DNA of 64,000 nucleotides from a virus, in the IMG/VR virus record IMGVR_UViG_3300035158_000183, positions 110,035 through 174,034 of that record. One strand, written 5' to 3'. Under the pieces are notes generated by a model, which had not been told where the DNA came from, ran no database searches, and worked only from the letters and a program-made list of their open reading frames with translations. How positions within the stretch are numbered: the stretch's first letter is position 1; every line of letters begins with the position of its first letter. Shown piece by piece: positions 24,861-44,478 of this stretch. The position numbers and the translations under genes were made by a program.

Positions 24861-27800
24861 CCAATTCGACCGTGCAGGTACAATGGGGGTGTAAAGGTGG
24901 CAGTTCTTCGTAGATTATAGCATCTGAGTTTTTGTAATTCAAAGGATGTTTATCACAGATTTCGCAAGGTTCACTTCCGTGACGGTGAGAAACCAGCTCT
25001 TCGAAGTCCAAAACCCGGTATCCACTGGCCTTGCCATAGTTGTAGGCCCTCATAATCTCACTGTTGTCTATCATGGCTGTTCTGTGGCGCAGGGCCTGTA
25101 GCATCAGGCCGGCGAATATGGCATCCTCAGCCTTCAGGCCTGGAGATTTCATAGTATACCGATCTAAGCTCTGAATGACCTCTTTCCTGAGTTTCATCAT
25201 ATATCTGGTGATGTGGTCGTTGATCTTCTCGTCAGCTCTCCCGGCATTTACTTGCCATATTTCGACATTTATGTCTCGTATACCCTGTCTATAGGCTTGG
25301 CGGGCCAGTAAGCTGAGGCGTTCTGCTGCCTTGCCGAAGGCTGCGTCTACCATAACCTGGAGTTCCTTGGTGCGGGCACCACGGTTCCGGATCTGGATAT
25401 CGATATCATTTCTGAGGATATCGTAAGCTGTCTGAAGAGGCGGCTGCTGGCTGAATATGTAATCTAGTGTAGGAACGGCATTTCGCAGGCCGAAGTTGTC
25501 CTTGTTGACCTTGGCACTGGCTCTGGTGCCATGCTGGTTAGCAGGCTTGTTCTTATTAGTAACAGAGTTGCCGCCAGCAGACTTGGTTTTGTTTTGTGCC
25601 GTTCTGGAGACTGCTTCGGACTGGGATGTTGCAGTTCCTGGCTCGTCGAGGGACTGGAGTATAACCTTGTCTCTCTCGATCAGCCCATATTGAGTCATAG
25701 CCCAATCTCCATCACCCTTCACGAACATACGACCCTTGCTATTGGAGGTCGGCCAACCCTCACCCTCAAATGGCTCGTAGCCTAGCTCGATACGCATCTC
25801 TGGATGGGTGATGGCGTTCTTCAGGAAGATATCCACAAAGTGATTCTCTTTAGCCTGGCGGGCCTCGAAGTCAATCTCCTTGAACTTGAGGTATACCTTG
25901 TTCTCTTCGTCGAAGAGCGAGCCATCCGAGAAGGTACTCTCCAACATGAGTTCGCGTATTATGAATGACTCGAACTGTGAGGCAAATTCTTTCTGATCAG
26001 CCTTGGTGTCGTCGATGAGGTTGCGTGACATGGTCTGGGCAGTAGAGTTCCCCTGAATGCTGATCTTTCCATTTCTTCTAACAACTAATACATGATTCGG
26101 GACCTCAAAAGCCCATACCTTGTCTCTGTAAAAAACCTTTTTGATTTGATGATCTCTTACTTCGACCACTGTCTTTGGATGGATATTAATCCTGCCAACG
26201 CCCTTATGGGCTGGTCCTAATGAAGACCGAAGACCCAACCTTGATGTTAGTTCTTGTATACCATCTAACAGCTCTTTACTACTTGAGCTATATGAAAAAC
26301 CCTTACGACCTGGCCTAGAATCATAAGATCCATCTCCTGAAACCAAAGCCACAAGAAGTAACCAAAGTTGTTTTGCTGGTAGGTTTAGAAATTCTCTTGG
26401 AATCTTTTTGTTATCGCTATAAGTACCAACATTCTCTGCCAAATATGTCCAAAGCGATTTACAATTTATCCAGAACCTAGAGCAAGAATCAGAATCGTTT
26501 ATATACTCATTAAACCTAAACGGCAATCTCTCAAGTACTGTTCTAATCTTGATTACTTTTTCAGGATTAGTCTTATTGCTTTGAGAGATAGAGATAGCCC
26601 ATTTATTATCTTGTTTGGCTAAAGTTCCCTCGGATATAAAATACCCTAAAAACTCAAGCCAATCATCCATGTCTATATTATTAAATGGACCAAGGTTGTC
26701 ATGATTGGTTATATTAGGGCTATAATCTACTTGAGGAAGATCAAATGTAGACTGTTCTGTCCCTTCTACTTCTGATGGAGAAGCTAATAAACAAAACTTC
26801 TTTACGTCAATATCTTGAACTTCTCTTAACTCCCAAGTAATTTTATCTTTCCAGCCAATTCTCCCAAAATATAATTTGTGATTTGGCGTCACGACAAGAT
26901 CAACATGACGATTACTAATCTTATAAAGTTCCCCCTCATAATCATAAGTAAGCAAACCATCAACTGGCTTCTGAAATTCTAATTGTTGGGTTTCAGGATT
27001 AATAGTACCAACCTTGTCACCATCCCTATAGTCCCAATAATTTTTCCAACCAGAATCTGTAAGAATTTGGGTCTGGTTATCAAAACACCGGTTGGCTGTA
27101 CCACCCTCACCCATATCCACCGAGCTATTGCCAAGACCAGTAAATATCCTCTGCTTGAAGTGAGCTATTACCTTCTCAACTGCTACGGGGCCGGCCTTGG
27201 TAGCCAGTGGAATGATTTCGTGCCGCTCCGGTGTAACCCAGCAACCATCTGTAGGCATTTGGGCCACCTTCAACTGTATCTCTTGGACTTCATCTTTACC
27301 ATCGGGGTTCACAGCAGCAGGGTTATTCTCTGTACCAACCTTGTAGTGGAATAATGGGAAAAGATGCTGGTAGACCAGAAGCTCTATATTCTCTTCAATA
27401 CGGCGCAGAGCGCGGATATCATCCTTAACTGAGGCCAGAACAGGGGTACCCACAGAGTAGCCCTCCCGCTTGTCATAGTAGAAGTGTACCACGTCATCAG
27501 GGCTGAACTCCTTAGCGGTCTTGCCGTAGACCTCCTGCTGGTACTTCTTAAGCCTACCGTATTCGTCTCTCTTGAATCTGACAGTCTCCGGAGCCATTAA
27601 GAAGTAACCCGCTACAGGCTGTAGCTTCTTGCCGTCAGGTGTAGTTCTGACACGACCGCCAGATGCCGGCTCCTTGCGCACCTTCACCCAGAAGGCATTC
27701 GAGGTACGTATTAATGCCCAGATAGTCTGGCTGATCAGGACCGGGAACGGAGTTCCGGTAGCTGTTTCCATTTGCTGGAAGCGTCTCTTGACATAACGCA

Positions 27801-28104
27801 CCCTCTCGGGCTTGGTTCCAACAAACTCGTAGCCCTCCTTCAGGAACAGGTTCTTCTTATTGCGGAATGCTCTGCGAACATAGGATTCGGTATCTATGAT
27901 ACGCCCACATTCTGCCAGATCCCATTCTGGAGCCTCCCAGCGCAATGATGGGGCGCGAGACCTGCCAATATTATTTGTGTATACCTTGGTGGGTGCTGGG
28001 ATGACCCTGGGTATAATAGCTCGCTTAGTCGTTCCCTTTGGCCCCTTACCAAAGCCATCATTCTTGGGCACTATAGTTTTAGCTGTGGTAGATGCCTTAG
28101 CCAT
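24847..28104 (-). CDS. Portal protein with intein and C-terminal head-morphogenesis (SPP1 gp7/MuF-like) motif
   Basis: SNAFWVK, DDVVHF, GTPVLASVKDDIRALR, ITHPEMRIELGYEP; C-terminal SEIMRAYNYG...CEIC...PPLHPHCTC. Confidence 0.82.
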   Translation of the reverse strand: MAKASTTAKTIVPKNDGFGKGPKGTTKRAIIPRVIPAPTKVYTNNIGRSRAPSLRWEAPEWDLAECGRIIDTESYVRRAFRNKKNLFLKEGYEFVGTKPERVRYVKRRFQQMETATGTPFPVLISQTIWALIRTSNAFWVKVRKEPASGGRVRTTPDGKKLQPVAGYFLMAPETVRFKRDEYGRLKKYQQEVYGKTAKEFSPDDVVHFYYDKREGYSVGTPVLASVKDDIRALRRIEENIELLVYQHLFPLFHYKVGTENNPAAVNPDGKDEVQEIQLKVAQMPTDGCWVTPERHEIIPLATKAGPVAVEKVIAHFKQRIFTGLGNSSVDMGEGGTANRCFDNQTQILTDSGWKNYWDYRDGDKVGTINPETQQLEFQKPVDGLLTYDYEGELYKISNRHVDLVVTPNHKLYFGRIGWKDKITWELREVQDIDVKKFCLLASPSEVEGTEQSTFDLPQVDYSPNITNHDNLGPFNNIDMDDWLEFLGYFISEGTLAKQDNKWAISISQSNKTNPEKVIKIRTVLERLPFRFNEYINDSDSCSRFWINCKSLWTYLAENVGTYSDNKKIPREFLNLPAKQLWLLLVALVSGDGSYDSRPGRKGFSYSSSSKELLDGIQELTSRLGLRSSLGPAHKGVGRINIHPKTVVEVRDHQIKKVFYRDKVWAFEVPNHVLVVRRNGKISIQGNSTAQTMSRNLIDDTKADQKEFASQFESFIIRELMLESTFSDGSLFDEENKVYLKFKEIDFEARQAKENHFVDIFLKNAITHPEMRIELGYEPFEGEGWPTSNSKGRMFVKGDGDWAMTQYGLIERDKVILQSLDEPGTATSQSEAVSRTAQNKTKSAGGNSVTNKNKPANQHGTRASAKVNKDNFGLRNAVPTLDYIFSQQPPLQTAYDILRNDIDIQIRNRGARTKELQVMVDAAFGKAAERLSLLARQAYRQGIRDINVEIWQVNAGRADEKINDHITRYMMKLRKEVIQSLDRYTMKSPGLKAEDAIFAGLMLQALRHRTAMIDNSEIMRAYNYGKASGYRVLDFEELVSHRHGSEPCEICDKHPLNYKNSDAIIYEELPPLHPHCTCTVELGVGG
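26047..27087 (-). mobile_element. Intein 4 (347 aa) in portal, LAGLIDADG endonuclease, ends Gly-Asn
   Basis: TANR/CFDNQTQILTDSGWK; VTPNH; LGYFISEG and LVSGDG; ends ISIQGN/S; AT-rich. Confidence 0.92.
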
Positions 28105-31435: not shown

Positions 31436-33388
31436 CTAGATATTGGTACGCGAAGGTCGTTGTTTATGTACATTAGCGCGGCGACGCTTTCTTTGCAACC
31501 ATTCAGCTTTACGTTGTGCTTCCATATCGCTTTCCCAGCCAACCCGATTGGTCTTGGCCACATCAGCAGCACTACTAATTCTACCAGGCATCATGTATGA
31601 TTGCCTACTGTTAGCTGGGATTTCTTCCATACGGCGATCTTCTGGACGATGGATCTCTGGTCTAGCCTGTTGCTGGTCAGCTATTCGGTTCTCCCGGTCC
31701 TGTAGAGACTCTGGCCTCTGAACAGTACGTGGATCTGGAACCGCTATTACTGTAGTGATAAACTTAGAGGCATGTAGGTCATCGAACTCCAGGTGGAATG
31801 CCACCAGAGCTAGGTTGAGTGCATCTAGCCGGTGATCCAGAACCTTAGGTTCACGGAGGCCAAAAACCTGTACCTTAGTGGGCGTAACACGCTCTACAAT
31901 ATAGTTTCGTAGCTGCTTCTCCAAGACATGGTCATGAGAGGAAATAATAATTCTCTCCTGCTCAAAAGCCCTCACGGAAGCACTGACCATGAACGGTTTG
32001 GCTGGCTTCTTGATCTTCTCATGGGTGATAGGGTCACGCACCTGCAGAGATGCCCCGGAGTCATATTTCTTCAGTATATCCAGTAACTTAGCAGTCTGTA
32101 AGTCCCCGCCCTTCCTGCGCTCTTTGTAAGCAGTCTGTCTCAATAGCTCATAGTTAGTACTCCCGCCTCCGGCATCAATATACACAAACGACGGTCGCCA
32201 CTTCCTATTCATTTCCAGAAGCTTTTGCACACCAGTGAGCTGTGTGAACTCAGTCTTAGGCACCAGCACTGCATCTACTATCTGGAATTTGCCAGTGAAA
32301 GTATTATGCCCTACGACTACTATCTCCGTACCATGCTGCTCGTTCCAGTCAGTGCCAATACAGTACCTCCATGTAGATGACCTCTTGTGTTCGCCGTACT
32401 GGTAGTCCGTAAGAGCCGTATCGATATACTCAGGTTTATAGACGCCCGCTTCCGAAGAACCCCACTCTGCCAAGTACTCATGGGTCCAGTCCTCCTCAGT
32501 GAAAGAGGAGCGTTCCATCTCCACATTCTTCCAGTGGGGCAGCACCTTGTAGTTATGATGGTACTCCTTATAGTGTGGGTTTCCAGTACAGAACTTATAG
32601 TATGGTGTCTGAAAGCCAGATGGAGTTGAGAATCCTACCAGTGCAGTATCAGGAGATGTCTGCAACAGCGGGATGACAGCGCCAGTAATAGCCTTCTCGT
32701 CAATATAGTCCATCTCCTCCAGGTACAATCTGTCAGCATCCTGTCCTCGGATAGAGACACCCTCAGATTTGCCCTTGGTGCCGGCAGCAAAACCACGGAG
32801 TCTTGCACCATTGGTAAGCTTGATCTCATAGTATGGCGCAGATACATCACGCACTACCATATTAGCTAACTCTGGATTGCTATGGATAAACGCCCGGACT
32901 CTGGTGATAATTTCTTCAGTATGGGATTTTTGTGGACCCGCTACCACTATCTTGATATTGGGTTCGGTAAATAGGTAGTAACATATCTCAATGCAGATCA
33001 GGTCGGTTTTGCCAGTACGTCGAGCAGTCCGGAGGACTTTACGCCTGGAGGTACAGCGCAAAATGCGTCCCTGGTACCATCTGGCTATCCATGGATCGTC
33101 TGTCGGAAGCTTAAGGTACCGCGCAGCCCACTTCACAATATCAGCTACTGCTTCCAGCTCCGCCCATGCCTCATCCGTAAAGGCAGTTCTCATATTTGGG
33201 TCTAGTTGGTTCCTGGGTATCCCTGTACAGGGAACTAGAAACTTACCACGAGCAGCCTTGCCATGCTCATCGACAAACTTCTCATATTTCTTAAGCTGTT
33301 TACGGACACAGTCGTGGCATTGATCTTCGACCTCATCCAGGACGAAGGGTAGCTTAAACTTCCGCAGATCCGTGCATGCATCTTCCAT
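31436..33388 (-). CDS. terL: Terminase large subunit
   Basis: Walker A ARRTGKT, Walker B LYLEE, FSTP motif III, HEYLAEW linker, RNase H-like IGTDW...YID...DHRLDA. Confidence 0.92.
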   Translation of the reverse strand: MEDACTDLRKFKLPFVLDEVEDQCHDCVRKQLKKYEKFVDEHGKAARGKFLVPCTGIPRNQLDPNMRTAFTDEAWAELEAVADIVKWAARYLKLPTDDPWIARWYQGRILRCTSRRKVLRTARRTGKTDLICIEICYYLFTEPNIKIVVAGPQKSHTEEIITRVRAFIHSNPELANMVVRDVSAPYYEIKLTNGARLRGFAAGTKGKSEGVSIRGQDADRLYLEEMDYIDEKAITGAVIPLLQTSPDTALVGFSTPSGFQTPYYKFCTGNPHYKEYHHNYKVLPHWKNVEMERSSFTEEDWTHEYLAEWGSSEAGVYKPEYIDTALTDYQYGEHKRSSTWRYCIGTDWNEQHGTEIVVVGHNTFTGKFQIVDAVLVPKTEFTQLTGVQKLLEMNRKWRPSFVYIDAGGGSTNYELLRQTAYKERRKGGDLQTAKLLDILKKYDSGASLQVRDPITHEKIKKPAKPFMVSASVRAFEQERIIISSHDHVLEKQLRNYIVERVTPTKVQVFGLREPKVLDHRLDALNLALVAFHLEFDDLHASKFITTVIAVPDPRTVQRPESLQDRENRIADQQQARPEIHRPEDRRMEEIPANSRQSYMMPGRISSAADVAKTNRVGWESDMEAQRKAEWLQRKRRRANVHKQRPSRTNI

Positions 33389-33392
33389 AATA

Positions 33393-34211
33393 TTACCTAT
33401 GTACGAACATAGCTTCCCGGCCCAGGAGGGACCGGGCAGACATGGTGCCGCGATTCATCATGGACAGAGATTGCTGTCTCATGGTGTGGGCCCGTTGGGT
33501 GTTGAAGGCTGGGCTTTGTACGCCCCAGTTGAGGCGACGCTTGCTCTGTTCACGCTCTACTAGCCTGTCGGGAATCCTGGTTAGGGCTTCTGTCATACTA
33601 CCACCGGCTATCGCTCCCGCCATACCACCAGCCAGGTATCCTACGCCTGCACCTATGGCTGTGCCCACAATTGGTATAGCACTACCTATGGCTGCACCAA
33701 TACCCATACCAGCTTTGCTGCCTACTTCCCAGCCTATAAAGTCTGCAATACCTATAGTGGCACCTCGAGCGGCCTCAACACCTTCCTGGCCAGCACCCGC
33801 CTCCATAGCGCCTAGGGTGGCAAATATAGCAGAGGTTACAAAAGCTCCTCCGAGAGCATACTTGATAGCACCGGCTCCGGCAAAACCTCCTCCGCCCATC
33901 TTCCGAGCTTCTTTCAAGGCCTTGGCAATGCCAGTGTCTCCCTTGTGCATCCTCTGAAGCTCTGTAAGGCGCCTGATATATTTCGGGCTGCCTGCAGCAT
34001 GTTTGTGCCGCCATGGGTTTATCAACATTTCCTTACGGTTAGGAGCAAATATTGTAGCCGCCATTCCGCCCCTGGCATAACTCTTGGCGAATTGTGCCCG
34101 ACCCCATTGGTGAGCACGATATCTTGCACGCGTTCCCAGGTCAGCCCCGGGAGGCGGTCGATCTGGTTGTCCGGTAAACCAGTTGAGATACGGATTGGAA
34201 AAATCTGCCAT
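33393..34211 (-). CDS. Gly-zipper membrane-type protein, possibly ejected from the virion
   Basis: GIGAAIGSAIPIVGTAIGAGVGYLAGGMAG. Confidence 0.6.
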   Translation of the reverse strand: MADFSNPYLNWFTGQPDRPPPGADLGTRARYRAHQWGRAQFAKSYARGGMAATIFAPNRKEMLINPWRHKHAAGSPKYIRRLTELQRMHKGDTGIAKALKEARKMGGGGFAGAGAIKYALGGAFVTSAIFATLGAMEAGAGQEGVEAARGATIGIADFIGWEVGSKAGMGIGAAIGSAIPIVGTAIGAGVGYLAGGMAGAIAGGSMTEALTRIPDRLVEREQSKRRLNWGVQSPAFNTQRAHTMRQQSLSMMNRGTMSARSLLGREAMFVHR

Positions 34212-34239
34212 ACTATACTAGACCTGGATGGAGTGGTTC

Positions 34240-34731
34240 TTAATAGCTACGATTGGATCCGAGTATGGAGTTTCCGATATAGGCGCCAGATCCCATACCC
34301 AGAGCTGCGAAACTTCCTGCACCCCATTTGTTAATACTCATAAAATTACGACCAATCAAGGCATTAGCTCCACGCGCACCGGCCTGTAGGTGTCCGCCAC
34401 CCACAATAGCAGCAGATCCTAGCCCCCCTAATTTACCTTGATTACTCATTATTCTTCCAGCGCCCCAGTCCATCATACGTCCGCCCGCCCCAGCGAGTCG
34501 GTTAGCCCCTGTGCCCAGAGCACCTGCGATACTTTTGATTCCATGTCCGCGACCCAGTGCGCCAATTCCTCTTGCAGCAGGGCCCAAAAGCATACCAGCT
34601 GCTGCGCCGCCCAGCGCTCCGCCTGCTATACCACCATAATCTCCCCAGTCGCCAACTGCCCCCATGGCTCCACCTGCAGCGGCACCAGCGAAACCTCTAC
34701 CTATTAAGCCTCTTGCGAAAAATCCTGGCAT
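34240..34731 (-). CDS. Gly-rich hydrophobic small protein
   Basis: Repeated GxxxG; ends GNSILGSNRSY. Confidence 0.65.
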   Translation of the reverse strand: MPGFFARGLIGRGFAGAAAGGAMGAVGDWGDYGGIAGGALGGAAAGMLLGPAARGIGALGRGHGIKSIAGALGTGANRLAGAGGRMMDWGAGRIMSNQGKLGGLGSAAIVGGGHLQAGARGANALIGRNFMSINKWGAGSFAALGMGSGAYIGNSILGSNRSY

Positions 34732-34747
34732 GTTGTTGATCTCCTAA

Positions 34748-35170
34748 TTAGTAGGGTCGGTTGGACTCTAATATTGTTGAGCCGATTAGTCCTGAAGCGC
34801 CTATTCCCCCAGCCGCAGTAAGGGCTGTTGTCAAGCCACGACGAGTAAAGCCTCTTCCTCCTACCTCTCGCATCCCCTCTATTAGAGGCCCAGTCCTACC
34901 AAACCAGCCCCCTGCCGCAGCATTACTACGCATCTTACTGCCCAGAAATGCAAATCCACGACGGCCCCATCTACTTCCCATTAGTGCACCGGTTGCGGCG
35001 CCAAAGCCTGTACCTGCTAGTTGGCTTTGATCACCACTCATTAAAGCACCACCTATTATGGAGTATCCCAGACCGCCCACGCCTCCTCTAACTGCGCCAG
35101 CGCCGACACCTCGGCCCATACCCAAGCTACTCGGAACACCAGCAAACCAAGAAGGTTTAAAAAATGCCAT
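34748..35170 (-). CDS. Gly-rich hydrophobic small protein, paralog of neighbour
   Basis: Repeated GxxxG; ends GSTILESNRPY; AAGGAGG SD. Confidence 0.65.
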   Translation of the reverse strand: MAFFKPSWFAGVPSSLGMGRGVGAGAVRGGVGGLGYSIIGGALMSGDQSQLAGTGFGAATGALMGSRWGRRGFAFLGSKMRSNAAAGGWFGRTGPLIEGMREVGGRGFTRRGLTTALTAAGGIGASGLIGSTILESNRPY

Positions 35171-35215: not shown

Positions 35216-38200
35216 TTATACTCCTGTCGAGGCAAACTTCTCATGTCTATGCCCGGCTCCACGTGAAGCCCTCAGACCGATGCCCACAGCAGCCTGGCTG
35301 TCGTTATAGAATCTCTTATTGCGCTTCAGTATGTAGTCATCGTAGCGCTGGCGCTTCTGAGCCCGCCAATTCACTAAATATTCTGAAGCCTTACGCTTGC
35401 GTCTTGCCTGATATTCATTCCAGGCCTTATAAGCTTTCTTCGTTAGCTCCCGACGGCTTATTTGGTGGCTCTCTAGATTTTGATCCCATAGTGGGCTTTC
35501 CGTGCTAGGATTATAACCAGAGCCAAACTCAGAAAAGCTTTTGACCATTTGGCCGCCTATCGAGTGCTCTGAACTGGGATTTATTCCATGTAGTTTAACG
35601 GTATCCTTCTTGCGGCCAATTAACATATTCACAGCTTCTTCTACATCAGGCTTCAGGTCCTCTATCCAATTTACTGGGGCTTCAGCTACAATGCCAGGCC
35701 GTGGGACACCCTCTACAAGACGTATTTTTAGCAGCTGCTCCTCTTCAAAGCGCCACTGTTCCATCATCTTGAAGAAGTCTTCATGCTCCCCACCACCAGC
35801 TAGTAATTTAGCTCTGTCTTCAGCTTTCTTCATTTCACGCTCTGCCTGACGTAGCTTAAACGCGTTATCCTGCCGCACCCTGACCATATTAGCAAAATGC
35901 TGCTCGCCCTTGAATCCCGCTAATTCGCCCCCTAGTGGCGCTGATAGAGGTTGTAAAACCGGCCTTTGAGCAGCATGCGCTGCTCGGCGTTCTCGGACAA
36001 CGCGAACAAACTCCTCCTCGCTGGAGAATTTACCTATCAGTGGCCTAGAGGGTCTCCTGAATATCTTGCCCAAGAATCTAGGCATCCAGCCAGAACCAAA
36101 CTCAGAATGGGCTCTAATAGATTGAGCGCCGAGATCTTCTGAGCCGGGGTGGATGCCATCTATAGGCTGCAAGGCTTTATTCGGCCCACCACCTATAGTG
36201 TCAAGTACAACATGTACATCTTGTTTGAGCCCAGCAGATTTGGCTCTGGCCAGATGCTCCTCCATCTTTCCCCAGTGGTATGCCATGGACGCTTCCATTG
36301 TAGCCACAGGCGACTGGACGCCAGCTGCTCTAGAAGCCATTCCGAAATCAATCCAAGATACATGTCCGCTTTCGGGACTGTAAAGGATGTTGGCCATATT
36401 GGGGTCGATATTCATCCACCCCTTGCCGACCACACCCGACATCTGCTTTCTCATCTCGGATTCGATATGCTTCTTAGGAACGGATATTCCCATCTTCCTC
36501 AGTTCGTAGATAGGAGTACCGGGCATGTACTCCATAAATAAGCGATCATCTTTCAGGCCATACGCCGTTGGGGTGATCTCTCCAGAAATTTCTCGCAGAA
36601 CATCGTATTCCTTCCTGATGGAACCTACAGACCTCTGCTTCAGAAACTTCAGTGCTTTAGGAAATTCTCTACTTTCCTTCAGGACATACTTGAAGGCGTG
36701 ACCTTCAACCTCAGACTCAAACAGATGGGCCATTCCAGATTGCCCATGGCCAAGTTTTTTGACCTCCGTTCCCTTCTGAAGGGCAGAAGCAAATCTTCTA
36801 CTACTGAGGAGTTTCTTATAGGCCTCTTCTGCCGGAAGGTCCTTGAATATTTTTCTGGCTATCTGTCTTAAAGGATCCCAGCCGCTACCGAACTCAGAGT
36901 GAGACCGCACAGACTGAGCCCCCATGCCTTCTGAGCCAGGATGAAGACCATTTATAGGCTTATAGGCTCTGTTGCGCCTTGGGAAGCGTCGAGCATAAAC
37001 CTCATTGTAGTATGCTAGCTCTTCTTGATAGGTTCGCCAGAGGCCTGGTAGATCTTTAACTTCCTCTTCAAGTTGAGCCCGCTCCCGGGCAGACTCTCTT
37101 TCCATAGTCTCTATAGAAGCACCATACTGTATATCTTCTTCGGCCAGACGACCAGCTTCTAGATCAGCCATCACCTTGGCCTTCACGCGCTCAAGCTTCT
37201 CTACATCAGCTTGGAACTTAGCCTCATCGAATGGGACTTCTATCATCGCCCTCTCGGAAGGGTCTTCACGGCTGATGTATTCTAGATAGCCCTTCTCTTG
37301 GCCGAGAGCATGCATGTAAAACCGCAACTGAGCCTCATGCTTCTTAAAGGCTCCACGCTCTCTGATATGCTGTAGCCGTCTAGCACTGACTGTCTTGATG
37401 TCGCCTGGTATGCCGCCTGGATAGAGAACATCAATAAACCCTGCCATGCCCAACTCTGGGTCATGCACAAATCTTTCGACATCCTCTACCTCACCACGCG
37501 CATACTGAGCTGCCTCAAAGAATCTGTGGCCCGCCACACCAGCCATGGAGGCTGCTGTCAGCATCTCAGTTTCTCGCTGCTCCTCGGTAAGATACTTGTA
37601 GATTTCCCTCTCGCTTGCCCCTAGCTTACTTGGAGCGAAACGTGTGTACTTAGGTACCTCTTTACGCTGGTGCCACTCAGGTTGTAGCCATGGGTTGGGC
37701 CCCCTATAGCCAGAACCGAAGTCTGAGTGTGCTCGCATGGCCTGGGCGCCCGTACCTTCAGACCCGGGGTGCATACCCTGAATCCTATTAAATGTGAAAC
37801 GTCCAGGGTGTCGGATATCTTGCCACTCGTCCATCGCCTGCTGGAGGGTTTCTTTAGAGATTTCCTCGGTAGCAATCTTATGGTAGTCAGCTACCTGGTA
37901 TAGGCCGACAGCAGTACGCCGGAGGTGCGGTGGGACCCAGCGTGTATACTTTTCAACTACAGACTCCAGTTCCGGATTCTGTGGAAGTGTGTATGTTCCT
38001 ATATTGTATACCTGTAGGGCGCCTCGGTGAGCAAACATCTCGTTGGCTACCCATTCCACATAAGGGTTATCCGGGTCTTCTCGGACAGTCTGTTGGGCTA
38101 TTCGGATATTGCGGTTGTAGACTGGTGCCTTGGCGGCCAGGTGAGCTATATCTTCCTTAGAGGTCATCCTGCCGCTCAGCAGCTGCCTCTGGGCTTCTCG

Positions 38201-40132
38201 GATGAAAGTAGCCTTATCTTCTGGGTCGATATCCAAATCCCAGAGAGCATGAAGACCTTCATGCAGTGTCGTCTCTCGAACCTTGATTGGAGAGATGTAC
38301 TTCATCAATTCTCTGGTCCCATAAACTCCTGCCTTGCTGGTTATATGGGAACCTATAATAACTTCACTGGGATCGAGGATACCGCCGATGTTTAGCTCGT
38401 CCTTGGCAGGATAATAGGAACCAAAGGCACCTATAGATTCTCTCTCTGTAAAGGCGGCATTAACCTTAGCAAGATTCTTATAGTCTCGCCAGAAAATTTC
38501 ACGTGATAGCACCTTGAAGGCATCAGGCCCACTAAGCATCAGCATAGACTTGTCCATCTCTTGAGCCCGCACTGCCTTGCGTACCAACTTGCGGTACTCT
38601 TTAGCAGTTAGCAGCCTATCCTCCAGCATCTCCTTCTCAATAGTTGGCTGTGTAATACCTCTGTAGCCAGACCCGAAGTCCGTGAGTTGCCTACGGGTAC
38701 GCTGTGCCATACCTCCGTCCCGCATACCCTCTATGAGCTTATAGTCCTCATCCCTGGAGGAGATGGCCAGCCCTACTAGCCCTAGGCCAGCCACAACACC
38801 GGCACCCTTGAGCGCTCCACCCCAGGTAGGTTTGAATCTCCTGATATCTACAAACGATCTATTAGATTTAATCTCGGGATAGAACTTACCCAGATGCTCA
38901 TGAAATGGTCTGGCGTACTCTGCCTCGCTAGCCAGCATCTTAGAGGCATAATCCTGAAACCGCATACCCTCGTCAATTAGCTGCAACTTCTGACCCGTAC
39001 CACGATGTACGGCTGCCTGGAAGACATCGAAGTTCTGCAGGAAAGTCTGTCTGGCGGCTTTGTGGTCTTTAAGTTTATCCCAGATAAACTCTGTCATTTG
39101 CACATCAAAACCAGCACCATGGGCACCTATCGCTGCTCCCTTGAAGCCTAGTGTCTCGGCCACAGCAGCCAGCTGCCAGCCTCTAGGTTTCAGCCTGAGG
39201 TCTTCGAACATACCAGCTTGCCAGCCCACTACCTTCCTGCCTATGGTATTGGACAGAAAAGCTTGGGTATGCTCAGCGACATCCAGAAGGTGAGTCTGCT
39301 TGAGGGCTCTATGTAGCTCATCCTGCAGCCCATGTCGAGAGGCCTGCTCCATGAGTATTGGGATATCAAACTGCTTTATGTTGTACCCCATTACAGTGCG
39401 ACCCGGGGTGAGCTGTTTGATAAACTTCTTGACTACTTGCTTCTCGGTAAGAGTGGTCTGTCCGGAGACTGCCAGGGCCTGCCGATACTTCGGGATGATG
39501 GTTTCCTCAATATAAGGATCATATCTCTTGGTAGGGTCCAGGTGCCCAAAGAACTCGGAGACCTGGCCACGCTGATGCATGCCAACAGTAAGAATACGAG
39601 AATCTCTACCCAGGAGACCTGTGGTTTCGAGGTCGAATATAAGTGGGTCCACCACACCAGGTCGCTGGAGGGCCTTCATCACTGAGACATCTGCCAGCCC
39701 TTCAAATAGTGGAGCACGGCCAGTGGCCTGACCGAAGCTGACAACGCCTCCGAAGAGACTACGGTTAACACTCTTGGCCTGGAGGCCTCTCCCACTGCCC
39801 CTGGTGTACTCTACAGGGTTAATGGGGACTCCCCACTGGTCAGGACCATAGTAGCTAGGTAGGTGGCCCAGCTCTAGTCTGCGCTTATGGTAGAACTGCC
39901 ACCAGCGCTGCCCACTAGTCTCCTTGACAGTCTCTTCCAGATAGTTCCGGACGAAGAATAGCTCTTCCTGGGTCCTGGCGGCCCGGATGAGCTGCTCAGG
40001 AGAATACAGATGCATTAGGCTCTTATCTATCTCGCGGAACCAGCGATTCCTGTACTGCTCCCAGATAGGTCGGCCAGGGGCCTCTAGAATATCATCTAGT
40101 AATTCCGATATGTTAGGATCTTGTGTGGGCAC
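35216..40132 (-). CDS. Multidomain protein: DEDDh exonuclease + HExxH zincin + Cas4-like PD-(D/E)xK nuclease + protein-kinase-like domain, joined by repeated linkers
   Basis: FDLETTG/GYNIKQFD/AHGAGFDV; LHEGLHALW...NEMFA; GHRFFE/GFIDV/DIKT/QLRFY; LGHGQSG/VLKE/MEYMPG/IDPNMAN/IDFG. Confidence 0.85.
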   Translation of the reverse strand: MPTQDPNISELLDDILEAPGRPIWEQYRNRWFREIDKSLMHLYSPEQLIRAARTQEELFFVRNYLEETVKETSGQRWWQFYHKRRLELGHLPSYYGPDQWGVPINPVEYTRGSGRGLQAKSVNRSLFGGVVSFGQATGRAPLFEGLADVSVMKALQRPGVVDPLIFDLETTGLLGRDSRILTVGMHQRGQVSEFFGHLDPTKRYDPYIEETIIPKYRQALAVSGQTTLTEKQVVKKFIKQLTPGRTVMGYNIKQFDIPILMEQASRHGLQDELHRALKQTHLLDVAEHTQAFLSNTIGRKVVGWQAGMFEDLRLKPRGWQLAAVAETLGFKGAAIGAHGAGFDVQMTEFIWDKLKDHKAARQTFLQNFDVFQAAVHRGTGQKLQLIDEGMRFQDYASKMLASEAEYARPFHEHLGKFYPEIKSNRSFVDIRRFKPTWGGALKGAGVVAGLGLVGLAISSRDEDYKLIEGMRDGGMAQRTRRQLTDFGSGYRGITQPTIEKEMLEDRLLTAKEYRKLVRKAVRAQEMDKSMLMLSGPDAFKVLSREIFWRDYKNLAKVNAAFTERESIGAFGSYYPAKDELNIGGILDPSEVIIGSHITSKAGVYGTRELMKYISPIKVRETTLHEGLHALWDLDIDPEDKATFIREAQRQLLSGRMTSKEDIAHLAAKAPVYNRNIRIAQQTVREDPDNPYVEWVANEMFAHRGALQVYNIGTYTLPQNPELESVVEKYTRWVPPHLRRTAVGLYQVADYHKIATEEISKETLQQAMDEWQDIRHPGRFTFNRIQGMHPGSEGTGAQAMRAHSDFGSGYRGPNPWLQPEWHQRKEVPKYTRFAPSKLGASEREIYKYLTEEQRETEMLTAASMAGVAGHRFFEAAQYARGEVEDVERFVHDPELGMAGFIDVLYPGGIPGDIKTVSARRLQHIRERGAFKKHEAQLRFYMHALGQEKGYLEYISREDPSERAMIEVPFDEAKFQADVEKLERVKAKVMADLEAGRLAEEDIQYGASIETMERESARERAQLEEEVKDLPGLWRTYQEELAYYNEVYARRFPRRNRAYKPINGLHPGSEGMGAQSVRSHSEFGSGWDPLRQIARKIFKDLPAEEAYKKLLSSRRFASALQKGTEVKKLGHGQSGMAHLFESEVEGHAFKYVLKESREFPKALKFLKQRSVGSIRKEYDVLREISGEITPTAYGLKDDRLFMEYMPGTPIYELRKMGISVPKKHIESEMRKQMSGVVGKGWMNIDPNMANILYSPESGHVSWIDFGMASRAAGVQSPVATMEASMAYHWGKMEEHLARAKSAGLKQDVHVVLDTIGGGPNKALQPIDGIHPGSEDLGAQSIRAHSEFGSGWMPRFLGKIFRRPSRPLIGKFSSEEEFVRVVRERRAAHAAQRPVLQPLSAPLGGELAGFKGEQHFANMVRVRQDNAFKLRQAEREMKKAEDRAKLLAGGGEHEDFFKMMEQWRFEEEQLLKIRLVEGVPRPGIVAEAPVNWIEDLKPDVEEAVNMLIGRKKDTVKLHGINPSSEHSIGGQMVKSFSEFGSGYNPSTESPLWDQNLESHQISRRELTKKAYKAWNEYQARRKRKASEYLVNWRAQKRQRYDDYILKRNKRFYNDSQAAVGIGLRASRGAGHRHEKFASTGV
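35513..38734 (-). repeat. Five dispersed 24-27-aa linker repeats, consensus IxGxHPGSExxGAQxxRxHS(D/E)FGSG(Y/W)
   Basis: Copies at 38663-38734, 37706-37783, 36878-36955, 36086-36163 and 35513-35593. Confidence 0.93.
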
Positions 40133-40142
40133 ACAGAGTCAC

Positions 40143-40937
40143 CTACTTGGCTTCCCAGTCGGCCTCTTCGATTGACTCGTCAGCTAGCTTTTCAGCGTCA
40201 GCCTTGATGTCTTCTATGGAAACGCCCTTCCTCTTGGCCATAGCACCTATAGCTTCCTTCAAGTAAGCGAAGTGCTGGCCAACATCGCCATCCTCACGGC
40301 GCTTAAGAGCAGCAGCTCTCTTGTATTTCTCTTTCCTGGTAGCCGCCAAGCTCTCTAGAATCTGCGCCCTAACCTTCTGGACCTTGTCCTTCACCTCTAG
40401 TATGGGGTGTGGGTTCAGGGTCTCGGAGGTAGCCTTGTCACCCTCAGTGACGTCCAGGCGGAGCAGATTCCATGCCTCCTCATCCGTCGAGAGACCATTA
40501 TTAGCTCTATAGTCAATTATATCGCATTCTACTAGCTTATTAACAAGAACCATCTCAGTCCGGCTCTCGACATCCACCTGCAGGTCCTCCACATAGCTCT
40601 GAAGCCAGGTGGAGATAAGATTTGCCTCCACAGGACAGGGGTCTGATATTGGATAATCTTGCCCATCATGGAACGGGCATGACTTGTTGGGGCATTTCTT
40701 CCCACCACAGAGCATGGGTATAGCGGCCGAGGTACCGACCTTCATCCTCACGATATGATTACGGAATTTGAGGGCCTGCTCCGGAGTCATGGTCTTCTCC
40801 AGCTTGGCCAGCTGTTGCCTGGGCAGCTCGAGAAAGTTAAAGAAGTCTGTCTTGGACACATTGCCCAGAGCATCTACCTGAGTGCCATCCAACTTCAGGA
40901 GAGCTGCCTTGGGAGTACCTGATCCACTGCCACCCAT
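40143..40937 (-). CDS. Cys-cluster helical protein, possible terminase small subunit
   Basis: CGGKKCPNKSCP...CPVE followed by helices with HPILEVK...LESLAATRK; lies near terminase-like genes. Confidence 0.4.
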   Translation of the reverse strand: MGGSGSGTPKAALLKLDGTQVDALGNVSKTDFFNFLELPRQQLAKLEKTMTPEQALKFRNHIVRMKVGTSAAIPMLCGGKKCPNKSCPFHDGQDYPISDPCPVEANLISTWLQSYVEDLQVDVESRTEMVLVNKLVECDIIDYRANNGLSTDEEAWNLLRLDVTEGDKATSETLNPHPILEVKDKVQKVRAQILESLAATRKEKYKRAAALKRREDGDVGQHFAYLKEAIGAMAKRKGVSIEDIKADAEKLADESIEEADWEAK

Positions 40938-41488
40938 TACTTAGCCACCCAATTTCCTTCTAGCTCGGTCTGATACTGGTCATCAGTATAGTAGGTCTTC
41001 GCCTCGTGAACTTTATCCAAACCATCTTCAAGATACAGGCTGCCTGCCTGGAACTTAACAGCAGGATAGATATCCCACAGTTTCTTGGCCAGCGGAGGCT
41101 CTTCATGGTCATATATCTTGGGCGAGGAGAAGAGTATTTTCTGGGTATCACCCATAGCACTGAATATCAGCCCAAGAGCATCTTCTCTAACAGATGCGAA
41201 CTCCTCGACAAGAATACAATCGAACTCACGTGCTCTTATCGCCTCAGCAGTAGATGCGAAGAATACATTGTCGGTAGGGTCCATGCGTCCCTTGACCTCT
41301 TCCCAGATGGCTTTCACCGGTGCGAGTATCAGTAGGTGCTGGCCAGCAGCTGCTTTCTCGTTCGCAATCTCGACCAGCAGATCAGTCTTGCCAATTCTCC
41401 TCGGCAGGACCGCCATGACATGCATATCTGTGTCTATTGCAGTCTTGAGGATATTATGACAGAGAGCAGTTAGATCATTATTAGCCAT
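40937..41488 (-). CDS. Stand-alone terminase-type ATPase domain (no nuclease domain)
   Basis: PRRIGKT, LILAP, ILVEEF, FSSP; ends YQTELEGNW. Confidence 0.75.
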   Translation of the reverse strand: MANNDLTALCHNILKTAIDTDMHVMAVLPRRIGKTDLLVEIANEKAAAGQHLLILAPVKAIWEEVKGRMDPTDNVFFASTAEAIRAREFDCILVEEFASVREDALGLIFSAMGDTQKILFSSPKIYDHEEPPLAKKLWDIYPAVKFQAGSLYLEDGLDKVHEAKTYYTDDQYQTELEGNWVAK

Positions 41489-41870
41489 CTTTGAACTCCT
41501 CTATCTCCATTTGCTTCGGCTTGCGGGGAAGGGTAGGCTGGTAGTCAAAGGGCCTGGCCTGATCCGGATCTACCGGCCCGATGCCAACCACGAAGGCCTC
41601 TGCATCGAAATATCTGGCAAAGACATACTCTGGCATAGCGTACAGGTGGCCGCCACCAGCGACGGTCACCCAACCGTTATATTTGTCCTGAGCGACAACA
41701 TCATAGACGGTATTCTTCTTAAATACTGCACAGAAGTCTTCTTTACAGACCGTAACGGCTCCGGAGGGCACCCTGAACTCACAGTTGGGCGTATTGGGAT
41801 GCACGACCCACCAGCCCTCACTAGGCTTGATGGGGAATTCTTTAGGATCTATTCTGATATGTCTCATCAT
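41481..41870 (-). CDS. Hypothetical protein
   Basis: Overlapping start/stop in operon. Confidence 0.6.
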   Translation of the reverse strand: MMRHIRIDPKEFPIKPSEGWWVVHPNTPNCEFRVPSGAVTVCKEDFCAVFKKNTVYDVVAQDKYNGWVTVAGGGHLYAMPEYVFARYFDAEAFVVGIGPVDPDQARPFDYQPTLPRKPKQMEIEEFKDG

Positions 41871-42163
41871 TCCACCGCCAACATACCATCATACTTCAGG
41901 AAGAGGAACTTCTCGCCCCTTATACTGAAGTTGATACCAACCTTGCCGTAGTAGACCACAGTATCGCCAACCTTGTAGGGCAGCTCCCTGGGCTGGTCCT
42001 CATCCTTGTTCATAATGTAGGATATATCCTCTGAAATCTGCGTAACCTTAGCCTTCTTGATGTCCTCACTACCCGGTTTTTTGGCAATTAAAATACCGCC
42101 TTCCGATACTTCATCCTCTGCAGTGATGGGTGAGGCAATGATCCATTCGTTTACAGGTTTCAT
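41867..42163 (-). CDS. groES: Co-chaperonin GroES (Cpn10)-like
   Basis: MKPVNEWII...SEGGILI...KVGDTVVY...GEKFLFLKYDGMLAV. Confidence 0.88.
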   Translation of the reverse strand: MKPVNEWIIASPITAEDEVSEGGILIAKKPGSEDIKKAKVTQISEDISYIMNKDEDQPRELPYKVGDTVVYYGKVGINFSIRGEKFLFLKYDGMLAVE

Positions 42164-42166
42164 TTC

Positions 42167-42466
42167 TTACTCCTTGGTTTCGTAGGTCCTGGCCCAGTTA
42201 TGGTATAGCCAGCATATTACAGCTGCAGCATCGGCTGCCTGGTTCTGGAGGAAGAACTCCTTGGCCGCTACAGCATATTTACAGTCCACTCCATCTGTGG
42301 AGTTATGACAGAACCAATCGAACCTCTCAATCATTGAGCTATCCTCATAGCCGGTCTTCTCCAGGAACTCAGCCAATCTACTGAGTATCTTGGGATCCAT
42401 TAATTGCCTGAGGTTTTTGCGGAACGCGGACAAATTCAGCATAACCTGATCCTTCTGTGGAAGCAT
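42167..42466 (-). CDS. Hypothetical protein
   Basis: GGAGG SD; 99-aa ORF. Confidence 0.6.
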   Translation of the reverse strand: MLPQKDQVMLNLSAFRKNLRQLMDPKILSRLAEFLEKTGYEDSSMIERFDWFCHNSTDGVDCKYAVAAKEFFLQNQAADAAAVICWLYHNWARTYETKE

Positions 42467-42521
42467 ACTTCCTCCGGTAATACTCTTTGTATCAGAAATT
42501 TGCGTACCTGTAAAGGTCTTT

Positions 42522-43304
42522 CTATGGGTCTACAGAATGATTTATGGCGGTAGGTCTGCGGACCTTGATCCTGCGGCTGTGGAGGAGGATCTCGTGTATC
42601 TTATTTACCTTGTCGCTGGTGTTATCAACCTTGGACTTCTGGGACTTGAGGGCACCCTTGATCTCTGTGATATCCTTGTTGTAGACCTTCTGCTGGACAT
42701 ACTTATCCTCGACATCCTTCTTGGCCTCTTCAGTGGCGAAATGATCCTTCTCAACGACATACTCCCTGAGGTCGGAGTGGGCCTTGCTGGCCCAGACTGC
42801 GGCACCCACACAGAGTGCCACAATGGTGATCACTGCCCCTATGGGGATAGCCTTGGTGGCCCTGCCATTTATAGGAGCCGAGGGCGGGTATGACTTCTGT
42901 TGTACTGCATACCTGATGGACCTCTCCAGATCATAGCTGGTCAGCCTGGGCTTATGGAGATAATCAGCCGCCCCAGCCCTGAGGAGCTGTGTATCAATTG
43001 GCTGATGTTCATTGCCTGTCATCACGATTAGGGGCACCTTCCATCCATTTCTGGAGGCTTCTTCCATGAGGTTATCCCCGTTTTGTCGGGAGAGTCGGTT
43101 ATCTACGAGGCAGGCATCATACTGTTTTGTGGCAAGGGCGATCTTGGCAGCGGAGTAGGTACTGACCCAGTCCGCCTTGAAGAATCGGCCATACACCTCC
43201 GTGAGCATGTCACGGGTCTTGTGGAAATCAGGTTCGGAATCTTCTAGTATAAGGACCCTGGTGATCTCAGAATCTGCCAGGGGGAAATCAGTATCTTCAG
43301 GCAT
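42522..43304 (-). CDS. Response-regulator receiver domain fused to TM helix and coiled coil
   Basis: VLILED, YDACLVD, LIVMTG, GAADYLHK; then IPIGAVITIVALCVGAAVWA. Confidence 0.85.
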   Translation of the reverse strand: MPEDTDFPLADSEITRVLILEDSEPDFHKTRDMLTEVYGRFFKADWVSTYSAAKIALATKQYDACLVDNRLSRQNGDNLMEEASRNGWKVPLIVMTGNEHQPIDTQLLRAGAADYLHKPRLTSYDLERSIRYAVQQKSYPPSAPINGRATKAIPIGAVITIVALCVGAAVWASKAHSDLREYVVEKDHFATEEAKKDVEDKYVQQKVYNKDITEIKGALKSQKSKVDNTSDKVNKIHEILLHSRRIKVRRPTAINHSVDP

Positions 43305-44478
43305 ATAGATATCTCCTATTAGGTGTAGAGGTTGTATACCCTGATTGTATCATAAATTATGCAGTATAGCCGGAATGGGGCCTTCAGTGGGGTGTGTTTC
43401 GGCGGGTCCGGAGAAGTCAAGGCCATATGGGGTAGATTTTGAGAAAAAATATATTTCATATTTCGCAATGTGAAATCCTGTATATGGAAATGAATACAGA
43501 TATTTGTATTGGATATTGATTTGGAGTCCATATGGAACCCAAAATGAACATTCCGAGTGAATACCTAGTATGTGTGGGTGGTGGTAGGGGCCACAACCTG
43601 CGTTCGGAGCCCACGGGGTGGTCTCGTGGGACCGAGTTCTGTCTTCATCCACCCTGGATGGATGATTGACTGAACACGCTGCGGATGGTCTGCAGCACTG
43701 TGTCAGACAGTATTCTGACAGCTCTCTCAGCGAGGAGATATCCACTCCCCGAGCCTACTGAGAAGAGATAATTACATGGTACTGAACAGCAGAGTCAGTA
43801 CCAGTAGGATTTAAAACCTGTGGATTACTACTTCTTCTACTCTGATACACTCACCAGTCTGGCATCACTGAAAGGTTGTGTAATTCAACCTGTGGTGTAC
43901 ATCAGCGTCATATCACTATATGTGATAGGTGTACTACCATCAGTGCTGTATATCAGATACTACATATCACTGTAGATATACATTAAGCTCTGAAATAAGT
44001 AGGAGATATATGTATATCCGTCCCTGAGAAGGAACAGTTAGATATGTACTGCCATACTGACTGGTGGTTATATCCCATATAGCTGGGTCAGTAATGCGTA
44101 GTAGTGGGCGCATGAACGACAGCTATCCTACCCCAGCTGGTGTGAGGGGAACAGCACATAGGAACAGCAGTGGTCCAGGGACACTGCCTAGTACGGTGCT
44201 CAGTACCGCACACCAGAGTACTCGATCTATGACTAGCCTCTAGTAGGTGTTGTGTAACCGAAGATGCACAGCACAGTGTACACATACACAGATAGGTTAA
44301 TTAATAAACACTGACCTACGATGTACACACTACTACGCTAGTCATAAATCCACCCCTCTATCATGCCCATGTGCCTGGTATACATGGGCAGCATAGATGG
44401 ATGGATATGCAAGGCAAACCAAGAAAAATCCTGCAACGGATTTGGTAAACAAAGCCCTAACGGGCAAAGGAGGAAGGC

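Follow-up and report, generated by a model that had tools for sequence, protein, structure and literature searches.

Multi-domain effectors of phages are known, and how they are assembled and diversified is poorly understood. This question is raised in a concrete form by a giant gene of IMG/VR virus record IMGVR_UViG_3300035158_000183 (174,034 bp), located in the 64,000-nucleotide stretch that was analysed here as a whole and is hereafter called the window (positions 110,035 to 174,034 of the record). The gene product, designated P0001, carries several unrelated enzyme modules separated by five copies of a peptide ending in FGSG. How does such a protein change its enzyme content, and what does the recurring peptide do? 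As set out below, the gene product is probably a "polyvalent" protein, polymorphic and built of several enzymes, from a clade of large, uncultured myophages that are distant kin of the Bacillus phage 0305phi8-36, with the FGSG peptide as the joint between its cassettes.

P0001 is encoded by a single minus-strand open reading frame (ORF) of 1638 codons, whose first codon, a GTG, lies 10 nt after the stop of the preceding gene and 6 nt downstream of the Shine-Dalgarno sequence AGGTGA; the public gene call begins at Met40 and is 1599 aa long. A Pfam scan gave five families and no others. The N-terminal module matches Pfam RNase_H_2 and phrog_192, the PHROG "DNA polymerase exonuclease", over residues 164-393, and the DEDDh motifs DLETTG, NIKQFD and HGAGFD can be read in its sequence. 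The second module has counterparts in seven other proteins, and its HExxH motif, together with a further downstream E and H, is invariant among these eight modules. Its AlphaFold2 (AF2) model reached a predicted local distance difference test (pLDDT) score of 71 and matched almost exclusively zinc metallopeptidases, at modest strength (VIA-align Z 5-6.8, Foldseek E-values of at least 0.7), and with such fold scores the module is called zincin-like. The third module matches phrog_1706 ("CRISPR/Cas system associated", Cas4-type) at residues 828-970 and displays the RecB-type active-site motifs IDV...GDIK and QLRFY (QxxxY). Residues 813-1052 contain no cysteine, the four that hold the Fe-S cluster of Cas4 being absent, so that this is a nuclease of the RecB/Cas4 type and not Cas4 proper; the label "Cas4-like nuclease", given in an earlier reading of the DNA from sequence alone (the initial annotation), holds for the PD-(D/E)xK fold family, as judged by the phrog_1706 match and the motifs, and fails for Cas4 itself. 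The fourth module matches ABC1 and Pkinase at residues 1124-1285, ABC1 above the cut-off. Residues 1352-1505 form a nearly unique module, confined almost wholly to P0001 within its family. The protein ends in a basic tail with the motif KRNKRF..S..AVGIGLR.....G[KR].H..F.ST in the first 17 homologues, and many of the tails listed for the wider set show a looser GG[KR]xH form. A PDB sequence search with P0001 gave no match at E<=1, NCBIfam models gave no useful match, and the helix-plus-linker region had no usable match in the ESM Atlas. The ORF, the linkers and the Pfam and PHROG matches agree with the description first given of the protein, namely unrelated enzyme modules on a five-times repeated FGSG linker, and the domain matches at 164-393, 828-970 and 1124-1285 all fall between linkers, which places the linkers at module boundaries as had been claimed.

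The linkers of P0001 are 33-37 aa long and end in FGSG[WY], with FGSG at residues 486, 805, 1081, 1345 and 1536. A hidden Markov model (HMM) built from the linkers of other proteins recovers all five, with i-Evalues of 3e-11, 4e-11, 1e-13, 2e-9 and 0.02 (computed at a nominal database size of 1e6). In the family as a whole the unit comprises about 35-38 aa with the consensus FSGKDDAYNTIEGLxHGGxAxxxR[KR]xLTDFGSG[WY]xG; the five copies quoted in the initial annotation are present, and the unit is longer than quoted there, starting further upstream. Two subtypes were distinguished: type A (..HGG.A...R[KR].LTDFGSG[WY]) is the common one, and type B, marked by an HPGSEG insertion, is rarer; P0001 has them in the order A-B-B-B-B. 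A preference of the two types for different positions in the string was considered, and no such difference was seen. Over 436 aligned linkers from 156 proteins, the F, G, S and G of FGSG are invariant and G-17, G-12, R-6, T-2 and D-1 nearly so. The five DNA copies differ synonymously (TTC/TTT, GGG/GGT/GGC, and TCT versus AGC for the invariant Ser), and the strictness of the peptide is therefore not explained by conservation of the DNA, a point already made when the sequence was first described. A six-frame HMM search of the 174-kb genome found the motif only in P0001 and nowhere else, including the capsid, scaffold-protease and portal. When the linker alone was folded with 96 aligned copies (AF2), mean pLDDT was 68, with one short helix and the rest extended; since it is not predicted to fold by itself, the linker behaves like an exposed linear motif and not like a domain. 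Candidate identities as an HNH, intein, NPTH-type or SEA-type self-cleaving element were rejected, the defining residues of each not being conserved. A hydrophobic segment lies within 25 aa upstream of the linker in 71 family cases, with a median gap of 3 aa.

Homologues are numerous and varied. A word-indexed search returned 17 proteins of 900-1900 aa, all with the linker and with differing Pfam content, and the linker-alone profile, run against 1.84 billion representatives, matched 536 protein clusters at E<=1e-3, including 362 at E<=1e-10. In 156 retrieved proteins, on which the statistics of copy number, spacing and module clusters are based, the linker occurs once (1 protein), twice (53), three times (58), four times (33), five times (6), six times (4) or seven times (1), and the spacing of successive linkers is domain-sized (median 238 aa, interquartile range 188-290); 25 of the 318 spacings are below 50 aa. 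Cutting these proteins at their linkers and clustering the pieces produced 155 module clusters, 108 of them singletons, and 140 architectures among the 156 proteins. Exonuclease-type modules tend to come first and the kinase-plus-tail last. The kinase is the commonest module (137 profile matches), followed among the P0001 modules by the exonuclease (109 members) and the RecB/Cas4-type nuclease (33 members), and the Pfam cargo in 36 sampled members included SNase (14), the atypical kinases ABC1/Pkinase (11) and RNase_T (6). The check on homologues that had been set beforehand thus returned the same linker with different cargo in one to seven copies. A degenerate linker, PGMPDRGFAPGTRESLTEF, is found at residues 515-533 of P0003 between a nuclease and a kinase module; FGSG is lost there, which indicates that single linkers can decay while the flanking modules remain fused.

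The family was not found outside uncultured phages. P0001 and its six-linker homologue P0014 had no tblastn match in 50,697 cultured-phage records, megablast of the giant-gene locus was equally negative, and a linker scan of 185,579 GTDB genomes for prophages gave no confirmed relative. An IMG/VR scan with the single whole protein gave no match. Pfam, PHROGs and NCBIfam contain no model of the linker. In the papers searched the FGSG linker is not described, motif-string searches giving unrelated matches only, and it is not described in the Aravind-group papers on polyvalent proteins (PMC5512222) and on jumbo phages. The statement in the initial annotation that the linker is not a described family is borne out by these searches, and the family, seen only in uncultured relatives of 0305phi8-36-like phages, appears new.

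That cassettes move at the linker emerges from a pairwise comparison of all family members, restricted to blocks of 60% identity or more that terminate within both proteins. Such blocks ended within 2 aa of a linker end in 22 of 24 cases, against about 1.8 expected and a maximum of 5 in 200 randomisations, and they started within 10 aa of a linker start in 9 of 10 cases. The clearest pair consists of L007g (equivalent to P0043) and P0033, which at the protein level are 99.2-99.4% identical over 491 aa up to ...QMTDFGSG and are unrelated thereafter, until a 41-aa C-terminal tail that is 68% identical; the called neighbouring genes of the two are largely equal in length. Because homology breaks at linkers, the linker can be read as a joint for cassette swapping, and judged by these alignments cassettes have demonstrably been gained, lost and exchanged between phages at the FGSG linker. 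The joint for swapping cargo is accordingly the best-supported part of what the initial annotation had inferred, and it is well supported by both the block ends and the P0033/P0043 pair.

The peptide is not restricted to one type of carrier protein. A five-row linker alignment found the motif in 56 IMG/VR loci, with a single linker-bearing ORF per locus. The gene order in 53 of these is gp112-like, giant gene, Gly-rich (gp115-like), TerL, w154, w139, w694 and portal. In the other three (L048, L049 and L057) the linker lies in a giant ORF of the tape-measure slot, with genes for the sheath, three tube paralogues and a pair of ~200-aa proteins ahead of it and another giant ORF and a lysozyme-like protein behind it. 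These linker proteins are homologous over about 800 C-terminal residues to a 2610-aa ORF of the window (2194-10026, minus strand), which itself lacks the linker and is preceded by the sheath, three tube paralogues and a pair of ~240-aa proteins. The N-terminal 550 aa of the window ORF contain several Gly/Ala-rich hydrophobic helices. Its matches to endonucleases were considered as cargo and proved instead to be intein homing endonucleases: the ORF holds two inteins (Intein_splicing, Hint and two LAGLIDADG matches) in a conserved WWEFG / TPxEGG segment, which is uninterrupted in L057 and interrupted by one intein in the window copy. In L057 the order is hydrophobic helix, linker, SNase, linker, hydrophobic helix, and in L049 it is helix, single linker, helix, with no cargo; the L049 protein seems to be split into two ORFs relative to that of L057. 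The P0001 gene stands outside the tape-measure slot, between the gp112-like gene and TerL. The presence of the linker in the tail proteins of L048, L049 and L057 indicates that the linker-plus-cargo cassette is portable between two unrelated carriers, in both of which the linker tends to adjoin hydrophobic helices.

Where the giant gene sits bears on where its product may go. In the window it belongs to a minus-strand late structural module comprising TerL, an intein-containing portal, a protease-scaffold fusion, the capsid, the sheath and tube paralogues, and the tape-measure-slot ORF. TerL and capsid share about 28-33% identity with their counterparts in 0305phi8-36, Acinetobacter phage ME3 and Moorella phage MTATph1, and the prohead protease, the N-terminal domain of ORF 22695-24860, is homologous to 0305phi8-36 gp123. 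A gp112-like gene directly precedes the giant gene in 46 of the 56 loci, and, of the Gly-rich proteins encoded on the TerL side, the 272-aa one has homologues in 0305phi8-36 (gp115) and ME3 (C-terminus of gp012). In 0305phi8-36 the slot between gp112 and TerL is occupied by gp113, gp114 and gp116, annotated as virion proteins by mass spectrometry; the comparative-genomics paper on that phage does not discuss gp112-gp116. ME3 gp011, in the same slot, is a linker-free DEDDh exonuclease followed by a hydrophobic helix; 26 targets (family proteins and locus ORFs counted together) have an N-terminal module homologous to it. The region before TerL of MTATph1 has no comparable gene. Five near-complete genomes of 155-191 kb, two of them with terminal repeats, have linkers in the giant ORF only. 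By analogy with these slots, virion packaging and injection of the giant protein are indirectly supported, both by the head/packaging location and by the linkers in tape-measure-slot proteins.

Features of the giant gene, its protein and its surroundings (window coordinates unless a related locus is named)
Feature	Residues	Coordinates	Strand	Basis or remark
Giant gene P0001, 1638-aa modular protein		35216..40132	(-)	GTG start; stop 35216-35218
DEDDh 3'-5' exonuclease module	161-393	38954..39652	(-)	RNase_H_2 E 4e-6; phrog_192 E 7e-13
Gly/Ala-rich hydrophobic helix	436-457	38762..38827	(-)	abuts linker 1; Kyte-Doolittle peak 1.75 at 439-457
Linker 1, type A	458-492	38657..38761	(-)	linker HMM
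Zincin-like module	493-779	37796..38656	(-)	HEGLH at 624-628; HExxH invariant in 8 proteins; structural matches
Linker 2, type B (HPGSEG)	780-812	37697..37795	(-)	linker HMM
PD-(D/E)xK nuclease module, RecB/Cas4 type	813-1052	36977..37696	(-)	phrog_1706 E 6e-10
Linker 3, type B	1053-1087	36872..36976	(-)	linker HMM
Atypical protein-kinase-like module	1088-1315	36188..36871	(-)	Pfam ABC1 E 2e-6, Pkinase E 4e-4
Linker 4, type B	1316-1351	36080..36187	(-)	linker HMM
Unknown-function module	1352-1505	35618..36079	(-)	no Pfam/PHROG match; singleton in module clustering; one profile match
Linker 5, type B, most divergent copy	1506-1542	35507..35617	(-)	linker HMM
Basic C-terminal tail, last 96 residues	1543-1638	35219..35506	(-)	conserved; aligned in 17 homologues
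Upstream neighbour, 264 aa		40143..40937	(-)	homologue of 0305phi8-36 gp112 and ME3 gp009
Three Gly/Ala-rich small proteins (140, 163, 272 aa), giant gene-TerL interval		33393..35170	(-)	
Large terminase subunit TerL		31436..33388	(-)	phrog_2 E 9e-34; Pfam Terminase_6N; tblastn to 0305phi8-36, ME3, MTATph1
Tape-measure-slot linker ORF of L057		8162-13672		
Tape-measure-slot linker ORF of L049		9008-11686		
Tape-measure-slot linker ORF of L048		7688-14920		

Several features of the surrounding region are recorded here in their own right. The portal gene (24847-28104, minus strand, 1085 aa) carries a LAGLIDADG-type intein, which probably accounts for its PHROG matches to families of ribonucleotide reductase and thymidylate synthase; the TerL genes of several related loci (L002, L003) also bear inteins. 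A 183-aa protein (40937-41488, minus strand) resembles the ATPase core of the large terminase (phrog_2 E 2e-5; Walker-A-like RRIGKT), and its gene lies two genes upstream of the giant ORF, apart from the real TerL; such a separate terminase-like copy occurs in only a few related loci (L030, L038, L050, L059). At 34240-35170 on the minus strand, two of the small Gly/Ala-rich proteins end in ..SNRSY and ..SNRPY, ME3 gp011 ends in ..NRNKHYMY, and the first small protein ends in other loci in GLVQGLHRGRHG, recalling the G[KR]xH tail of the giant protein; these ends may be shared C-terminal signals of a set of co-assembled proteins. Upstream of the block, a GroES/Cpn10-like protein of 98 aa is encoded at 41867-42163 on the minus strand, where locus L003 has HSP20 and Cpn10. 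At about 42000-44000 both GC skew and AT skew switch sign; up to about 42 kb the long ORFs lie on the minus strand, and from about 46 kb most of them lie on the plus strand, a pattern that suggests a divergent transcription boundary. Many linker genes lie 1-15 kb from a contig end (IMG/VR loci L007-L062), and this fits a block adjoining the genome terminus, as in 0305phi8-36, where gp108-TerL come after the 6.5-kb terminal repeat.

Taken together, these observations outline a probable organisation of the protein. A carrier part would consist of the N-terminal DEDDh exonuclease, the Gly/Ala-rich hydrophobic helix and the conserved basic C-terminal tail, and enzyme cassettes would be strung between these parts, in P0001 the zincin-like module, the RecB/Cas4-type nuclease, the atypical kinase and one module of unknown function, and in relatives mostly SNase, kinases and exonucleases. 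Each cassette is bounded by the FGSG[WY] peptide, which serves as the junction for gain, loss and exchange. The protein may be built into the virion together with its Gly-rich neighbours and leave it at infection, and it would in this way deliver nucleases and a kinase ready-made, before phage gene expression. Conservation of the linker is far stricter than a hinge needs, from which we infer recognition by a partner, presumably one acting in trans.

A number of observations weigh against this interpretation. Some linkers are degenerate (P0003), some are closely spaced (the 25 of 318 below 50 aa) and one tail protein has a single linker without cargo, so that single copies can be scars and not working sites. 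No partner of the linker was identified. A complex prediction for the linker alignment and the prohead-protease domain (aa 1-275 of ORF 22695-24860) gave 0.02, with the mark at 0.32, a result that says nothing on binding in either direction. No other protein of the genome carries the linker, which fits poorly with a cleavage or targeting signal shared among head proteins. The 0305phi8-36 proteins gp113, gp114 and gp116 show no detectable sequence similarity to P0001, which makes the virion argument drawn from that phage a positional one. Lastly, no family member comes from a cultured phage, and packaging, ejection and cleavage of the protein are putative.

The linker may be cut. A polyprotein whose linkers are sites for the prohead protease, its own zincin or a host protease, and whose enzymes would be freed in the capsid or the host, is a possibility to which we give a considerable chance, short of an even one. 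The linkers are exposed, largely unstructured and placed exactly between modules, a prohead protease homologous to gp123 is encoded nearby, and the SNase of the tail protein has a linker on both sides, as excision requires. The zincin-like module of P0001 has an invariant HExxH, and metallopeptidase domains have been proposed to process polyvalent proteins (PMC5512222). Yet this module is found in only about 8 of about 157 relatives (about 5%) and cannot be a general processing enzyme, and an in-cis zincin was rejected on these counts as the explanation of the linker. As for the prohead protease, no linker-like sequence is present in the capsid, scaffold and portal, which it also cuts, and it would not be met by the linker-bearing tail protein; in addition, 35-38 conserved residues far exceed usual protease sites. 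The G-S-E of type B may resemble the S/A/G-x-E sites of the phiKZ head protease, but its Glu is absent from the predominant type A.

The FGSG unit might be a portable "cargo socket", recognised in trans for processing or for hand-over at ejection, and used by both head-module and tape-measure-slot carriers; we offer this tentatively, as a rather unlikely reading. That the linker serves something other than cleavage, docking or a hinge is doubtful as well.

The linker could otherwise be a multivalent docking or retention peptide, which we consider unlikely. Bound to a host factor or to a site that recurs in the particle (the inner wall of the capsid, the scaffold, the portal or the lumen of the tail tube), its copies would hold the cargo string in place and ensure that it is packaged or leaves. 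A linear motif of this length and conservation, with its invariant aromatic-Gly-Ser-Gly-aromatic core, suits a binding interface, and both the tandem linkers nearly devoid of cargo and the cargo-less linker of the tail protein fit a role of the linker itself. Precedents that count in its favour are the short peptides that load HK97-fold shells, such as encapsulin cargo-loading peptides, the C-terminal tail of the HK97 protease and the T4 capsid-targeting sequence. However, no partner was found, and a targeting signal would more conventionally be sought in the conserved C-terminal tail; the presence of the linker in tail-module as well as head-module proteins argues against a partner or site confined to the capsid. 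There is also little likelihood that the linker is a spacer and recombination joint only, a flexible hinge that allows domains to fold independently and provides shared sequence for exchange, with no specific partner. Exchange at the linker, the prediction that the linker alone does not fold and the existence of degenerate, scar-like copies all agree with such a role, whereas recombination alone would conserve DNA and not protein, and the invariant FGSG, the near-invariant G, R, T and D and the synonymous divergence point to a stricter selection on the peptide. Very unlikely, finally, is a late cytoplasmic multi-enzyme (for host DNA breakdown or DNA processing during packaging, for example) that merely sits in the packaging operon: the terminase genes next door, a cargo made up mostly of nucleases and packaging evidence that is not direct would suit it, but the same slot of 0305phi8-36 encodes virion proteins, P0001 contains a hydrophobic helix and its gene stands beside those of small, Gly-rich, tape-measure-like proteins, linker plus cargo also occurs in a tape-measure-slot protein, structural under the usual reading of that slot, and rapid cassette turnover is typical of conflict effectors and not of housekeeping enzymes.

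Whatever its further role, the FGSG peptide provides a standard joint for swaps of enzyme cassettes, up to seven in series and in two carrier proteins. A profile of about 38 aa becomes a marker for about 500 protein clusters in large uncultured phages, a family that would otherwise go unseen, and it marks the boundaries of many modules of unknown function (108 singletons among 155 clusters). If these proteins are conflict effectors, as cassette turnover suggests, the unknown modules are candidate host-takeover or anti-defence enzymes. If the peptide is a signal for processing or delivery, it would represent a new mechanism of cargo handling in tailed phages and possibly a tool for loading proteins into particles. 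And if the cargo socket were real, almost any enzyme could be plugged into proteins that leave the virion, a natural modular delivery platform with standardised joints.

Among known systems, polyvalent proteins of phages have MuF, DarA-N and LPD domains and MPTase as hallmarks, MuF and LPD being typical; the Pfam scan of P0001 found no match to MuF, LPD or any other family beyond its five. They likewise combine several unrelated effector enzymes in one large phage polypeptide, are encoded among late or virion genes, sometimes include a zincin-type peptidase and are thought to travel with the DNA into the host (Iyer, Burroughs, Anand, de Souza & Aravind 2017, PMC5512222). P0001 resembles the class in that it contains at least two unrelated enzymatic domains and is phage-encoded beside TerL, portal and capsid genes. 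In contrast, the text that describes the class (PMC5512222) contains neither the word "linker" nor a repeated junction motif, whereas up to seven copies of one peptide are found here. The zincin-like module may correspond to MPTase, its structural matches being of Z 5-6.8 only.

In polymorphic toxins, junction motifs (VENN in CdiA, PxxxxDPxGL in Rhs) border a constant carrier and an exchangeable C-terminal effector, and the Rhs motif is also a self-cleavage site. The likeness is one of behaviour only, identity being lost abruptly just after a conserved peptide, as in P0033 versus P0043. The sequences are unrelated, with VENN and DPxGL absent here, and polymorphic toxins have one junction per protein and form a toxin-immunity pair; the FGSG system repeats the junction in series, lacks an immunity gene and uses a protein of the phage virion module as carrier.

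Tape measure proteins with embedded enzymatic motifs, such as those of mycobacteriophage TM4 and T5 (pb2), are comparable to the tape-measure-slot protein of L057 with its embedded SNase, the idea in both cases being that cargo rides on a protein leaving through the tail, although the P0001 gene itself is outside the tape-measure slot, filled in the window by the linker-free ORF 2194-10026. To our knowledge, no conserved portable motif borders the cargo embedded in known tape measures. The IPs and Alt of T4, with their capsid-targeting sequence, and the inner-body proteins of phiKZ are packaged into the head by means of a short signal recognised during assembly. Such signals sit at the N-terminus and recur in further head proteins that the same protease cuts, unlike the FGSG motif, which is internal, repeated and limited to one gene per genome, also in the five near-complete relatives.

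Among cultured phages, ME3 gp011 and the gp112-gp116 block of 0305phi8-36 occupy the same slot upstream of TerL, with gp112 and gp115 homologous to genes flanking the giant gene, but neither phage has an FGSG linker or strung cargo. The linker system is an elaboration seen only in uncultured relatives. What appears new is the use of one junction peptide many times in series, on two different carriers, in uncultured relatives of 0305phi8-36-like phages only.

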